Assembly: GCA_902524285.1 (NCBI GenBank)
Contig: CABZCR010000001.1
Span: 81,774 to 145,773 of the forward strand
Direction of reading: 5' to 3'
DNA: 64,000 bases
DNA from: an uncultured Pelagibacteraceae bacterium
GTDB lineage: Bacteria; Pseudomonadota; Alphaproteobacteria; Pelagibacterales; AG-422-B15
The stretch's first letter is position 1; each line of letters begins with the position of its first letter. Shown here piece after piece: positions 4,741-43,110 of the stretch. The notes beneath the pieces are model-generated. The model did no database searches. It was not told where the DNA came from and saw only the letters and a program-made list of their open reading frames with translations. The translations under genes were made by a program, and so were the position numbers.

Positions 4741-4830
4741 GGAAAGGTGGCCGAGTGGTTGAAGGCGCACGCTTGGAAAGCGTGTATGCGGGTGACCGTA
4801 TCGTGGGTTCGAATCCCATCCTTTCCGCCA
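4741..4830 (+). tRNA. tRNA-Ser (anticodon GGA)
   Basis: 90-nt cloverleaf. Acceptor stem GGAAAGG/CCTTTCC; anticodon stem CACGC/GCGTG with loop TTGGAAA; long variable arm; T-loop GGTTCGAATCC; encoded CCA. It is a GC-rich island in AT-rich DNA. Confidence 0.93.
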
Positions 4831-18501: not shown

Positions 18502-18585
18502 AAAATCAAGTCATACCTTCTATTTAGATATTAGTATTTTACAAATATAAACATAAAGTTAATTTAATTATTATTATTAAAACAA

Positions 18586-18614
18586 TTTACTTTTAGTCCA
18601 TATGTAGCTATAAG
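18586..18614 (+). promoter_or_regulatory. candidate sigma70-type promoter of cspA (TTTACT-17-TATAAG)
   Basis: -35 at 18586-18591, 17-nt spacer, -10 at 18609-18614. This implies a roughly 70-nt 5' UTR, consistent with the long csp leaders known elsewhere. Confidence 0.3.
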
Positions 18615-18693
18615 ATCCGTCTAAAGATTACGTTTTTGTTCCTTTTTCTGGAGTAATACGAAGTCTAAACTAACTTAAAAAGGAATAACAAAT

Positions 18694-18900
18694 ATGGCTA
18701 CTGGTACTGTTAAATGGTTTAATCCAAAAAAAGGTTATGGCTTTATTGCCCCTGAAGAAGGCGATAAAGATATCTTTGTTCACATCACAGCTGTTCAAGC
18801 TGCGGGTATGAAAAAATTGGATGAAGGTCAGAAACTATCATATGAAGCTGAGGAAAAAGATGGAAAAGTCTCAGCAGTTAATTTACAAGCAGCAGAATAA
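18694..18900 (+). CDS. cspA: cold-shock protein (CspA family)
   Basis: 68 aa with RNP motifs KGYGFI and DIFVH. Confidence 0.95.
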
Positions 18901-28783: not shown

Positions 28784-28834
28784 TAATTTATTATTTATTA
28801 AACAACATTTTATTTTCGTTATGATACAATATTT

Positions 28835-28927
28835 TGGGAGATTGAGTAGACAAGTTATTCGCCAATCCGGTCAGGTCTGAAAAGAAGCAGCCGTAACGAA
28901 GATATTTGGGTTACGTTGATCTCCCAC
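28835..28927 (+). ncRNA. ffs: signal recognition particle RNA (4.5S-type)
   Basis: Closing helix GGGAGAT/ATCTCCC. Conserved domain IV CCGGTCAGGTCTGAAAAGAAGCAGCC with a GAAA tetraloop. It sits immediately upstream of dnaX, which is the conserved ffs-dnaX-ybaB-recR order. Confidence 0.85.
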
Positions 28928-28945
28928 TAAAGATTAGTGATTTTT

Positions 28946-33419: not shown

Positions 33420-34241
33420 TTATTGTGAGCAGTTTTCAATTGTTTGAACATCTATATCTAATTTTTCTGCGGTGTTACCATAAAAGATTCCTCTGATTGG
33501 CGCCGCATAACTTGCATCTAAGCCGCATGAAACTCGAATATATCTCTCATCAGGACAACATTGGTTTGTAGGATCAAAGCCAACCCAACCAAGTTGATCT
33601 ATATAAAGTTCAGCCCATGCGTGTGTAGCTTGAAATTCAGAGTCATTTCTATTTTTATGCATGTAGCCATTTACATATCTTGAGGGAATGCCAAAGTATC
33701 TAGCAGCGGAAATCATTATATGTGCTTGATCTTGGCAAACACCCTTCTCTTGATCTATTGACATAGCTGCAGTTGTGTTTGTATTGGTGGTATACGGTTC
33801 ATATTTAATTTTTTTTGCAATTAAGAGCATTAAATCATGAGCAATAGTTACAGTGTCTTCATTTGAGCTATCTTTTGAGGCAATAGAAGCTAGCTCTTTT
33901 ATTTTATCATTTGGCAGTGTTAAAATTGTACTTCTTAAGTAGACATATGGATCGATTTTATCATTCAAACTTTCATACAACCCATTTGTATCAATTGTTT
34001 CAACTTCTCCTTTAACTACAAATTTAATTTCCTTTTCTGATGGCTCGCCTTTGAAGTTAATTATATTATTTCCCTCTCCATCTCTAAATATTTCACCACC
34101 AGATTTGTTATTTCTTTTTACAGTCCAATTCAATATTTTAAGACCATTGTAGGGTGATGGAGTCAACTTTGTTGTTTGTATTAAACCTAATAGGTTATCA
34201 TCATATTCATAATTTGTTGTATGATTGATTGTAAGTAACAT
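33420..34241 (-). CDS. transglutaminase-like family protein (Bact_transglu_N plus transglutaminase core)
   Basis: The Cys-His-Asp triad is visible in GVCQDQAH, THAWAELY and GFDPTN. Confidence 0.85.
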   Translation of the reverse strand: MLLTINHTTNYEYDDNLLGLIQTTKLTPSPYNGLKILNWTVKRNNKSGGEIFRDGEGNNIINFKGEPSEKEIKFVVKGEVETIDTNGLYESLNDKIDPYVYLRSTILTLPNDKIKELASIASKDSSNEDTVTIAHDLMLLIAKKIKYEPYTTNTNTTAAMSIDQEKGVCQDQAHIMISAARYFGIPSRYVNGYMHKNRNDSEFQATHAWAELYIDQLGWVGFDPTNQCCPDERYIRVSCGLDASYAAPIRGIFYGNTAEKLDIDVQTIENCSQ

Positions 34242-34244
34242 GAT

Positions 34245-35180
34245 TTACCTAAAAAAATGATTTTGAATTTGATTGTCTAAGAAAGATATCTTCGATACAA
34301 AATTGGTCACATACTCATGCAAACCATATTCAATAATTGACTCGACAGTTTCGTCTTTTACAGAATTATGAACTGATTTAAGACCAGAGTAAATATCACT
34401 GATTTTATCAGGACTGCATTTCAAACAATTAAGATGATAAACAATATTATTTATACAAAAACTTAAAGAACGTGAACAATCATTATTAAGTATAAAAAAA
34501 TGAGCAATTTTTGTTGAGGTCACGTCTCCATCATAAGCCCATCTAAAAGCGCGAAATGAAGATAGTGATCGTAAAAGTATAATCCATTGTAAATTATCAA
34601 GATTTCCCCCTATATAATCAGCAGTGGGAAGTAGTACAAAATATTTTACATCAAGCAATCTCGCAGAATTATCTGCTCGTTCAATGAATGTGCCAAGAAA
34701 TATAAAATGATATCCGTCATTTCGTAATAATGAGTTTGCTGATCCCCGAAACATATTTACTTGTTGAATAGTCCATTCAGTAAAGTTTGGTAGATCAGCA
34801 CGAGTAAATTTTTTATTTTTTAGCTCCAATATCTCTTTGTATGACTTATTAATTGCAACCCATGCCTCAGGGGTGAATGCAGTCCGCACTAATAGGGCAT
34901 TATTTCTAGCTTTGGATATACAGCTGTACACAGAGGAAGGATTTTCTTCATCAAAAAAAATATAATCCTCAACATTTTCCTGATTTATTTCATTATATTT
35001 AGTAAAGTAACCTTGAGCAGCACCCGCAGCTGATAATACCGAGTCCCATTCATTATGATAGCCTTTAGGGTTAGGAAACAAGGACATTCTATAACCCACA
35101 TCAAGAAGGCGTGCCATAGTTTCTGCTCTTTCCATATATCTACTAATCCAGTAAAGATTCTCTGCTGTTCTGCTTAGCAT
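34245..35180 (-). CDS. alpha-E domain protein (COG2307-type)
   Basis: 311 aa with N-terminus MLSRTAENLYWISRYMERAE and a second repeat FLGTFIERADNSARLLDVKY. Confidence 0.85.
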   Translation of the reverse strand: MLSRTAENLYWISRYMERAETMARLLDVGYRMSLFPNPKGYHNEWDSVLSAAGAAQGYFTKYNEINQENVEDYIFFDEENPSSVYSCISKARNNALLVRTAFTPEAWVAINKSYKEILELKNKKFTRADLPNFTEWTIQQVNMFRGSANSLLRNDGYHFIFLGTFIERADNSARLLDVKYFVLLPTADYIGGNLDNLQWIILLRSLSSFRAFRWAYDGDVTSTKIAHFFILNNDCSRSLSFCINNIVYHLNCLKCSPDKISDIYSGLKSVHNSVKDETVESIIEYGLHEYVTNFVSKISFLDNQIQNHFFR

Positions 35181-35181
35181 G

Positions 35182-36594
35182 TTAATCTGCGAGGACCCAA
35201 GTGTCCTTTACTCCTCCTCCTTGTGATGAATTTACTACATACGATCCTTTATTTAATGCAACTCTAGTTAATCCCCCTGGGCATAATTGTACTTTTTCTC
35301 CAACAAGACAGAATGGACGTAAATCAACTCGTCTTCCTGAAACTTCATTATCTATTAAAGTTGGTGAGGATGATAAGTCTAATGTTGGTTGAGCAATATA
35401 TCCTCGAGGGTTACTTTTCAGTTTAGTAGAGAACTCTGAAATTTGATCTTTAGTTGATTTAGGTCCAATTAACATTCCATAACCACCTGAACCATCAACC
35501 TCTTTCACCACAAGTTTTTCAATATTTTCTAATACATAAGTTAATTCGTCATCTCTTTCACATCTCCACGTTTCAACATTATCTAGAATAGGTGTTTCAC
35601 CAAGGTAAAATTTTATCATTTCAGGAACAAATATATAAATAGCTTTGTCATCTGCGATACCAGCACCAGGAGCTGAGCATATATTCACACCACCTGTTTT
35701 ATAAACTTGAGTGATCCCCGGGACACCAATGACTGAGTCCGGGTTATAACAAAGAGGATCTAAAAATTCGTCGTCAATTCTTCGATATACAACATCTATT
35801 TTTTTTGGTCCATCAACTGTCTTCATATAGAGCAAATCATTTTCAACAAAAAGATCTTGTGACTCCACCATTTCAATACCCATTTGATCGGATAAAAAAG
35901 TATGTTCGTAATATGCACTATTTAAATGGCCTGGAGTTAACAAGACAACTGTTGGTATACTGCTATCACATTTTTTTGGGGCAAGACTCATTAGCGTCTG
36001 CAGTAATCTAGTAGGATAGTCATCAACTCTTAAAACACGATTCGTGTGAAATAAATCAGGAAACATTTTCATCATGATTTCTCTATTTTCCAACATGTAT
36101 GAAACACCAGATGGTGTCCGACAGTTGTCTTCTAAAACATAAAACTCATCTTTTCCTGTTCTGACTAAGTCAACTCCAATTATTGGACTATAAATCTTTC
36201 TTGGAGGTGAAAAGTTGATCATAGACTGATCATATGACGATTTTTTATAAACAATTTCTTTTGGAACAATCCCCGCCTTAAAAATTTCACCACTATTATA
36301 AATATCGTGAAGAAAAGAATTTAGAGCTTTCGCTCTTTGTAAAACACCTTTTTCTATCTTTACCCATTCGTTGTTTGTAAGAATTCTTGGAATTAGGTCA
36401 AAAGGGATGATTCGTTCAGTCATATCATCATCTTTGACCGAAAAAGTAATACCAATTCTTTTAAAATGAGACTCTGCTTCAAAATTCTTTTGGCTAATGA
36501 CCGTGGATGACATAGTTCTCAACCACGAATTTACTTGTAAGTAGTGCTTTCTTATTTGAGCATCATCGCTATACATTTCATCAAACATGGCCAC
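35182..36594 (-). CDS. circularly permuted ATP-grasp protein (COG2308-type)
   Basis: 470 aa with YVLEDNCRTPSGVSYMLENR and VVKEVDGSGGYGMLIGP. The start is either GTG at 36594 or ATG at 36588. Confidence 0.85.
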   Translation of the reverse strand: MAMFDEMYSDDAQIRKHYLQVNSWLRTMSSTVISQKNFEAESHFKRIGITFSVKDDDMTERIIPFDLIPRILTNNEWVKIEKGVLQRAKALNSFLHDIYNSGEIFKAGIVPKEIVYKKSSYDQSMINFSPPRKIYSPIIGVDLVRTGKDEFYVLEDNCRTPSGVSYMLENREIMMKMFPDLFHTNRVLRVDDYPTRLLQTLMSLAPKKCDSSIPTVVLLTPGHLNSAYYEHTFLSDQMGIEMVESQDLFVENDLLYMKTVDGPKKIDVVYRRIDDEFLDPLCYNPDSVIGVPGITQVYKTGGVNICSAPGAGIADDKAIYIFVPEMIKFYLGETPILDNVETWRCERDDELTYVLENIEKLVVKEVDGSGGYGMLIGPKSTKDQISEFSTKLKSNPRGYIAQPTLDLSSSPTLIDNEVSGRRVDLRPFCLVGEKVQLCPGGLTRVALNKGSYVVNSSQGGGVKDTWVLAD

Positions 36595-36647
36595 ATACTA
36601 ATCAAATAGCTATCAATATTAATTTTATGCCTTTGCCAAATTGACAT
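36552..36647 (-). CDS. candidate 31-codon upstream ORF overlapping the ATP-grasp start
   Basis: GGGAGGGG (36654-36661 on the minus strand) lies 6 nt before the ATG at 36647. My translation is MSIWQRHKINIDSYLISMWPCLMKCIAMMLK. It ends 36-42 nt inside the ATP-grasp ORF in another frame. Confidence 0.25.
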   Translation of the reverse strand: MSIWQRHKINIDSYLISMWPCLMKCIAMMLK

Positions 36648-36927
36648 GTTATTCCCCTCCCGAATTCAGCAAATAATCTGTATTTGATGATTATGAAAAA
36701 AATTTTTGAGCAATCATTTAACTACTTTCTTAGGGCTTTCCCAGTAATCTTGACTGTTTACTTTCTTTTTCAAATAGCTGGAGCAATTATTTAGGTATTT
36801 ATTATGTTTGGAACTAGATGGAATTTTAATCCTTCCCCCCTTAAATTGGATATAGCTTTGACCATCATGCTAATGTTGCTAATAGTATAATACCTAAATA
36901 GCTCTAAAATTGATATATAGTTGATTT

Positions 36928-43033: not shown

Positions 43034-43110
43034 GCGCCGGTGGCTCAGCTGGATAGAGCACCAGACTACGAATCTGGGGGTCGGGAGTTCGAATCTCTCC
43101 CGGCGCGCCA
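43034..43110 (+). tRNA. tRNA-Arg (anticodon ACG)
   Basis: 77 nt. Acceptor GCGCCGG/CCGGCGC; anticodon stem CCAGA/TCTGG with loop CTACGAA; T-loop GTTCGAATC; encoded CCA. Confidence 0.93.

Follow-up and report, generated by a model that had tools for sequence, protein, structure and literature searches.

What do a circularly permuted ATP-grasp protein, an Alpha-E protein and a transglutaminase-like protein, encoded side by side, contribute to a SAR11 bacterium, and can the cell do without them? The question is raised by a cassette on the minus strand (33420-36588) of a stretch of 64,000 nucleotides (nt) from an uncultured member of the Pelagibacteraceae (SAR11); this whole stretch is referred to as the window. 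The trio is almost certainly the COG2308/COG2307/COG1305 module, the core of the so-called 'Anbu operon', and ranks with the more widely distributed of the conserved bacterial gene clusters that have no known substrate. The cassette combines intact catalytic signatures, a conserved gene order and strong purifying selection with an accessory status in SAR11. The system itself is not new, having been known for more than 15 years, and the present findings do not reveal its function. The following genes make up the cassette:

35182..36588, minus strand: gene 1, circularly permuted ATP-grasp protein (COG2308 type), 468 amino acids, assigned by Pfam and the conserved ATG
34245..35180, minus strand: gene 2, Alpha-E protein (COG2307 type), 311 amino acids, assigned by Pfam
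33420..34241, minus strand: gene 3, transglutaminase-like protein, 273 amino acids, assigned by Pfam

All three open reading frames (ORFs) are located on the minus strand and are separated by gaps of 1 and 3 nt, precisely the tight packing claimed by the first-pass annotation, which had been made from the sequence alone; its domain assignments for the three proteins were likewise borne out by the Pfam matches. The order ATP-grasp, Alpha-E, transglutaminase was constant in all 80 genome loci in which the contig reached far enough. Based on the 1- and 3-nt gaps, this constant order and the joint deletion of the genes in two related loci (L092/L093, see below), the region is predicted to be a co-transcribed three-gene cassette. 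At the amino-acid level, the SAR11 proteins share 60-62% (ATP-grasp), 45-50% (Alpha-E) and about 40% (transglutaminase) identity with those of Rhodobacterales. No curated NCBIfam model matched any of the three proteins.

The product of gene 1 gave full-length matches to CP_ATPgrasp_2 (PF14403, E=1.9e-153) and CP_ATPgrasp_1 (PF04174, E=2.7e-137), and its dN/dS ranged from 0.03 to 0.10. The mechanically called ORF (35182-36594) comprises 470 amino acids from a GTG at 36594. As this upstream GTG is not kept in relatives, in which the ATG at 36588 is conserved, and as nearly all full-length database gene calls among those listed have 468 amino acids, the true start is predicted to be the ATG at 36588. 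PDB 3N6X is a full-length orthologue (E=4e-175), and the fold of the SAR11 ATP-grasp protein is therefore effectively known; a profile search of the PDB returned this entry as its sole match. The entry, which we take to be Mfla_0391 of Methylobacillus flagellatus, is a structural-genomics structure that came without a ligand, a substrate or a functional assignment; the depositors' name, 'putative glutathionylspermidine synthase', is an annotation and not a result. An AlphaFold2 (AF2) model of the ATP-grasp protein was poor (predicted local distance difference test score, pLDDT, 51; shallow alignment) and was not used for a fold search.

In the product of gene 3, Pfam identified Bact_transglu_N (E=8.9e-10) and Transglut_core (E=1.9e-21). 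The motifs GVCQDQAH, THAWAE and GFDPTN begin at residues 167, 206 and 221, and the Cys-His-Asp triad that had been read from them could be confirmed as Cys169-His207-Asp223, residues whose conservation reaches at least 98% across 79 orthologues from related loci. The triad motifs were also matched in alignments with PDB 3ISR (E=5e-12) and TgpA (6G49). Since no signal peptide is visible in the gene 3 product, the enzyme is presumably cytoplasmic. The stop codon of gene 3 abuts that of the convergent truA.

The product of gene 2 covers the entire Alpha-E profile (PF04168, E=8.6e-83, positions 1-294 of 294). A helix with the pattern ERA[ED]xxARLLDV occurs twice, at residues 17-28 and 167-178, and E17, R18, E20 and R24 as well as E167, R168, D170 and R174 were invariant in 36 sequences. 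An hhalign comparison of the N-terminal with the C-terminal half (probability 97.3%, E=2.4e-11) confirmed that Alpha-E is an internal tandem duplication. The AF2 model (pLDDT 84, predicted template modeling score 0.85) is all-alpha with 15 helices; no relative of Alpha-E was found in the PDB by sequence, nor by a Foldseek search with this model (best E=0.39). The duplication and the orphan fold are additions to earlier knowledge of the trio.

The first description of the cluster centered on the proteasome homologue Anbu (Valas and Bourne 2008, PMC3235984), and later treatments are those of Fuchs 2017 (PMC5666114) and Piasecka 2018 (PMC6376114). The Anbu operon ranges over Proteobacteria and Cyanobacteria in the order COG2308, COG2307, COG1305 and then Anbu, and in Yersinia bercovieri, Pseudomonas aeruginosa/putida and Cereibacter sphaeroides it shares families, order and tight spacing with the SAR11 cassette. 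Anbu comes next after the Cereibacter trio and, in tblastn searches with the Cereibacter protein as query, adjoined the trio in 46 of 51 non-SAR11 loci. In contrast, the same query found no match in 29 marine loci (L001-L029) nor in the 64-kb window, where the best E value was 7.6. The SAR11 cassette is the Anbu-less core of the module, the fourth gene of the strict Anbu operon not being present. Thus, the trio is self-sufficient, and feeding Anbu is not its sole purpose. Mycobacterium tuberculosis Rv2411c-Rv2410c-Rv2409c is presumably a trio of the same composition, uncharacterized and equally Anbu-less. COG2308 also occurs in other genomes without Anbu (Valas and Bourne, PMC3235984).

Biochemical results on the ATP-grasp family were found for only two of its proteins. 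The ATP-grasp orthologue of Y. bercovieri frees orthophosphate from ATP, and in the same study no Anbu peptidase activity was detected (PMC6376114). A survey of 2021 still listed no function for Anbu. A preprint of 2026 on Rv1722 was considered as a function-defining paper and rejected, as Rv2411c appears in it solely as a negative candidate, having failed as a GABA-trehalose (GABA, gamma-aminobutyric acid) synthetase (10.64898/2026.04.15.718621). In the literature searched up to mid-2026, no substrate or product is defined for the trio. The first-pass annotation, which considered neither substrate nor physiological role to be established, was right as to the substrate and the biochemical role; the physiological context is less obscure than it stated, as it had overlooked the nitrogen-limitation context that is known from other bacteria (see below).

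Within SAR11, the presence of the cassette is variable. A metagenome search anchored on the neighboring gene dapE, with presence scored at the dapE-truA site, yielded 12 loci that carry the cassette beside dapE and 13 that show a dapE-truA junction without it, a sample of loci that is not an unbiased census. In 11 of the 13 operon-less loci dapE directly abuts truA. Up to about 10 nt before the ATG of the ATP-grasp gene, locus L092 matches L091 at 96% identity along 6.5 kb; exactly the 3202 nt holding the three coding sequences (L091 8283-11484) are then missing, after which the match resumes at 93.5% identity. L092 retains the operator-bearing region and two small ORFs upstream of the operon (sORF1 and sORF2, described below), and L093 has the same junction. 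Similarly, L102 lacks a 3513-nt block of L100 (3079-6591) comprising sORF2 and the operon, between flanks of 86-91% identity. The deletions in L092/L093 and in L102 are two independent events in separate lineages.

A further type of variation emerged when the window was compared with L007 and L085. In the flanks the identity is 94-98%, but between about 36700 and about 33300 it is only 65-84%; this block spans the cassette, its promoter region and the terminal ~100 nt of truA. With about 95% identity in the flanks, the cassette alleles agree to only about 78%, and dS was ~2.6-3.2 for the operon genes compared to 0.3-0.6 for dapE and truA. The drop in identity and the high dS inside near-identical flanks indicate that a divergent allele replaced the whole cassette by recombination. 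Wherever dS was finite, the operon genes gave dN/dS values of 0.02-0.19, by which the cassette is under strong purifying selection where it is present. We consider it very likely that the cassette is accessory in SAR11, an optional rather than a core element. Purifying selection where present together with clean deletions makes it functional yet dispensable, a small flexible locus. Accordingly, the earlier argument that retention in so compact a genome speaks for an important function does not hold, since the cassette is variably present and has been cleanly deleted in close relatives.

A context of nitrogen limitation is established experimentally for the module in two other bacteria. In P. 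putida under nitrogen limitation, the operon is described as comprising the most up-regulated genes (PMC3235984), and in a Burkholderia cenocepacia ntrC mutant under nitrogen limitation the genes I35_5080-83 changed by -8.2, -9.4, -9.4 and -6.0 (PMC5491218). This cluster (I35_5080-5083, BCAM1233-1236) unites genes for an ATP-grasp protein (DUF404/407), an Alpha-E protein (DUF403) and two transglutaminase-like proteins, shares its regulation with transporters for polyamines, urea and amino acids, and offers the strongest experimental case that was found for a link to nitrogen limitation (PMC5491218); unlike the SAR11 cassette, it has a fourth gene encoding a large transglutaminase-domain protein, and it is controlled by NtrC/sigma-54. 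A sigma-54 promoter has been predicted upstream of the Bradyrhizobium gene (PMC13207237), and in marine metagenomes the domains of the trio co-vary with urea-metabolism domains (PMC3597751). In a second marine alphaproteobacterial clade, whose ATP-grasp protein is about 75% identical, the trio is located 2.8 kb downstream of ureDABCEFG (L083 1-4200), and a phage-type integrase gene lies 2 kb downstream of the trio (L083 12282-13340). This clade has a conserved non-coding string of its own ahead of the trio, CCATAGCTAAGCATGAA, which has no consistent reading frame and in L014-L029 precedes the ATP-grasp start by about 95-115 nt.

The upstream regions of the Rhodobacterales-type loci contain a palindrome of the form GCNN-(AT-rich 7)-NNGC in 37 of 51 cases compared to 3.5% of control windows, the pattern having been defined post hoc, after the sequences had been viewed; an earlier, looser NtrC-box pattern gave a weak enrichment (35% versus 19%). 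In L030-L080 it is mostly positioned 113-139 nt upstream of the ATP-grasp start, and a second conserved string, GCTGATTAACTG, is found at about 45-55 nt:

L030-L080, upstream of the trio: GC[AC]C-(AT-rich 7)-GGGC palindrome, examples GCCCAAAAAATGGGC and GCACAAAAATTGCGC

The NtrC box has the sequence TGCACC-N5-GGTGCA, and the Rhodobacterales palindrome resembles such an upstream activator site.

In the SAR11 loci a different element was found. The region upstream of gene 1 had been described as the largest non-coding spacer in the window. Indeed, no other stretch of the window that lacks ORFs of 40 or more amino acids is as long as 36595-36927 (333 nt), and the only larger gap in the crude gene call (18502-18900) contains a gene for a cold-shock protein of 68 amino acids. 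However, the spacer is not non-coding throughout, as it contains two conserved small ORFs on the plus strand:

36589..36692, no strand assigned: true intergenic region of about 100 nt, from an alignment of 11 SAR11 loci
36619..36646, minus strand: conserved element TGTCAATTTGGCAAAGGCATAAAATTAA, candidate operator or promoter element
36693..36794, plus strand: sORF1, 33 amino acids, MKKIFEQSFNYFLRAFPVILTVYFLFQIAGAII, conserved in length and frame
36804..36890, plus strand: sORF2, 28 amino acids with a hydrophobic C-terminus, MFGTRWNFNPSPLKLDIALTIMLMLLIV, with a coding signature

The intergenic region presumably holds the operon promoter. The conserved element contains an imperfect palindrome, TGTCA-N3-TGGCA (36634-36646), whose beginning is exactly 58 nt away from the ATP-grasp ATG on the upstream side. 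The distance is the same in all SAR11 loci that cover the start of the ATP-grasp gene at the dapE-truA site. The half-sites are invariant, the center is variable (ATT, GAT, TAA, TTC, AAA) and the surrounding DNA is diverged; in the deletion variants L092/L093 the element is retained as a relic. TGTCA-N3-TGGCA is thus a candidate DNA operator or promoter element and not an NtrC-type box, differing in sequence and position from the NtrC-like GCNN-N7-NNGC at about -115 of Anbu operons. Without mismatch, the palindrome is unique in the window, and matches with one mismatch occur at chance level, so that 64 kb do not suffice to define a regulon. The idea of a riboswitch or structured leader was rejected, as the spacer gave no Rfam match at E<=1 and the predicted RNA fold of the 5' region was no better than that of shuffled sequences (z=+1.48). 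Scans for sigma-70 promoters and terminators performed at chance (16 found versus 21 expected, and 3 versus 1.6, respectively), and no convincing sigma-70 consensus site was found in the intergenic region.

The two small ORFs lie in tandem, are divergent from the operon and are both conserved in SAR11 relatives, in which the non-coding DNA beside them is far more diverged. For sORF1, the length of 33 amino acids, the frame and the hydrophobic tail are kept in L008-L010 at 48-55% identity, and its exact sequence is present as an unnamed gene call in Joint Genome Institute (JGI) metagenomes; the product looks like a single-pass membrane peptide. In sORF2, 15 synonymous and 3 non-synonymous codon changes separate the window from L009, and the amino-acid identity in relatives is 82-89% despite the divergence of the adjacent non-coding DNA, which clearly points to purifying selection. 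Standard gene callers would miss sORF2 on account of its length, and the protein collection does not contain it. No Pfam match was obtained for either product. Both small ORFs are intact in the operon-less L092/L093, and sORF2 is gone together with the operon in L102. In the loci sampled, they occur in no lineage except those with the operon now or in the recent past; neither the second marine clade nor the Rhodobacterales showed homologues beside the operon. A functional link to the operon is improbable, and the small ORFs are probably neighbors rather than part of the system. In L009 (5263-5679, minus strand), and at the same position in L011, an extra gene between dapE and sORF2 encodes a 4HBT_2 hotdog-fold thioesterase-like protein (Pfam E=1e-14), a further variation at this site.

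The host of the window is a member of the Pelagibacteraceae, the top genome matches being single-cell genomes of uncultured Pelagibacteraceae with 99-100% identity. About 96% of the window is coding, and its GC content is ~0.30-0.38 throughout, without a compositional anomaly in the operon region. The cassette is surrounded by ordinary housekeeping genes; neither mobility genes at the cassette site nor transporter or other pathway genes linked to it were seen in the gene list of the window. At the gathering threshold, Rfam matches in the whole window were restricted to two tRNAs and the signal recognition particle (SRP) RNA. The cold-shock gene occupies the gap 18502-18900, the window's largest under a 70-amino-acid ORF cut-off, and leaves 192 nt upstream. 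These other features are:

one flank of the cassette: recR, def, fmt and truA, housekeeping genes
other flank of the cassette: dapE, dapD and an amino-acid kinase gene, housekeeping genes
18694-18900, plus strand: cold-shock-domain protein gene, 68 amino acids, Pfam CSD E=4e-25
28833-28931, plus strand: bacterial small SRP RNA, Rfam gathering threshold
4741-4827 and 43034-43107, plus strand: two tRNA genes, Rfam gathering threshold

What might the cassette do? The best explanation overall, on which we stand midway between acceptance and doubt, is that of an Anbu-less SAR11 cassette in which a ligase/amidase pair with an Alpha-E adaptor would operate under nitrogen limitation. The ATP-grasp protein would use ATP to activate a carboxylate as an acyl-phosphate and join it to an amine, so that a cytoplasmic peptide or protein would receive an amide bond of the peptide, isopeptide or gamma-glutamyl type, and the papain-fold Cys-His-Asp enzyme would transfer or hydrolyze the same type of bond; both steps are derived from the chemistry of the families. 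Genes 1 and 3 might then form a synthetase/amidase pair, comparable to the two halves of glutathionylspermidine synthetase/amidase. In the Escherichia coli enzyme, an ATP-grasp-related synthetase is combined with a papain-like Cys-His amidase which reverses the bond. This logic is proposed for genes 1 and 3 as a functional analogy only, as the E. coli enzyme is a single bifunctional polypeptide with a CHAP amidase domain and has no Alpha-E partner. Alpha-E may act as an adaptor or regulatory subunit that couples the two enzymes. The module would be deployed under nitrogen limitation, remodeling or recycling peptide or protein nitrogen, and in SAR11, where TGTCA-N3-TGGCA at -58 stands in place of the NtrC-type box, the cassette would be a niche-specific option and not a housekeeping function.

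The separate parts of this explanation are held with different strength. A role in nitrogen limitation in SAR11, suggested by analogy to other bacteria, is plausible, although we lean slightly towards doubt; ligase/amidase-pair chemistry on peptides or proteins, equally suggested by analogy, is a tentative proposal about which we are more distinctly reserved. Several points weigh against the explanation. The ligase/amidase idea is an analogy, and apart from the name chosen by the depositors of 3N6X, which was the sole match of the PDB profile search, no homology of gene 1 to glutathionylspermidine synthetase could be demonstrated. Alpha-E, with its invariant E, R, D, H and W residues, could be an enzyme itself. 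No NtrC-type box was found in the SAR11 upstream regions, and to our knowledge SAR11 possesses neither NtrC nor PII nor sigma-54; the nitrogen link is therefore transferred from distant proteobacteria. The post hoc definition of the Rhodobacterales palindrome is a further such point, as are the pull-downs in Y. bercovieri, in which no stable complexes of the operon proteins were obtained (PMC6376114).

Other explanations were weighed against the same data. The trio has been read as a protein-tagging system by Valas and Bourne 2008 and Iyer 2009, the latter's proposals being cited here as relayed in PMC6376114 and PMC5666114. In such a pupylation-like pathway, the ATP-grasp protein would attach a peptide or amino-acid tag to target proteins, the transglutaminase-like protein would remove or cross-link it, and a protease would degrade the tagged protein. 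The position of Anbu after the trio in most non-SAR11 loci, the tagging or deubiquitinase (DUB)-like roles proposed in the literature (PMC6376114, PMC5666114) and the induction under nitrogen limitation, which fits a raised protein turnover, are all compatible with this idea. We nevertheless regard it as unlikely: with Anbu absent from the 29 marine loci and the window, the trio must work without it; COG2308 also occurs in other genomes lacking Anbu; neither a tag gene nor a conserved same-strand small ORF is present in the operon, and no proteasome homologue in the window; and neither peptidase activity of Anbu nor a complex with its operon partners could be detected (PMC6376114). An alternative that dispenses with a protein substrate, and which appears to be similarly unlikely, is small-molecule metabolism, the ATP-grasp protein making and the Cys-His-Asp enzyme hydrolyzing a low-molecular-weight amide conjugate, such as a gamma-glutamyl- or peptide-polyamine conjugate akin to glutathionylspermidine that might store nitrogen or buffer the redox state. 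The name under which 3N6X was deposited and the co-regulation with polyamine, urea and amino-acid transporters in B. cenocepacia would be in line with such a role, and Rv1722 illustrates that ATP-grasp enzymes can yield unexpected metabolite conjugates by ester ligation. However, proteins with a transglutaminase core characteristically act on proteins or peptides, a proteasome-like protein is often linked to the trio elsewhere, Rv2411c made no GABA-trehalose, and the SAR11 cassette has no transporter or other pathway genes linked to it.

The small ORFs adjoining the operon invite a further reading, namely a pathway for ribosomally synthesized and post-translationally modified peptides (RiPPs) in which they encode precursors modified by the ATP-grasp protein; the product of the upstream small ORF had already been suggested as a candidate substrate. 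Both ORFs are real, sORF2 and the operon are jointly missing in the L100/L102 indel, and in our sample the small ORFs occur only in lineages having or recently having had the operon. Still, they are on the opposite strand and resemble membrane peptides, both are intact where the operon has been deleted (L092/L093), and they have no homologues beside the operon in the second marine clade or Rhodobacterales, which speaks against such a substrate. Graspetide pathways use ATP-grasp enzymes of the RimK/MdnC type, whereas the Pfam matches of gene 1 are to the circularly permuted families only. A RiPP-like pathway is hence very improbable. Even less is to be expected of a mobile or defense-type accessory cassette, anti-phage or selfish, by which the patchy presence might be explained. 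Polymorphism in presence and allelic replacement at a fixed site would suit such an element, as would the phage-type integrase gene 2 kb downstream of the trio in one locus of the second clade. Searches of PADLOC-DB with the three proteins, however, gave 0 matches at E<=0.01, the SAR11 site has neither mobility genes nor a compositional anomaly, the ATP-grasp protein is 60% identical between SAR11 and Rhodobacterales with dN/dS of at most 0.1, and expression is nitrogen-regulated in other bacteria.

Thus, what the SAR11 locus adds to a long-known system is the Anbu-less minimal form, natural deletion and replacement variants, and an operator-like element at a fixed position. In other bacteria, nitrogen starvation induces few genes as strongly as this trio, and its minimal form in the most abundant marine heterotroph shows that the three proteins are a self-sufficient unit. 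The natural knock-outs in almost identical genomes provide a comparative route to its role via the nitrogen regime. It might be speculated, although we would not bet on it, that the cassette is a strain-variable nitrogen-stress module of SAR11 under a previously undescribed operator at -58 and its regulator. If this were true, the presence of the cassette could track ocean nitrogen regimes in metagenomes. Such an association would for the first time make the module, which has been awaiting a function since 2008, accessible from the side of ecology, and its study might reveal a new chemistry of peptide or protein amidation.

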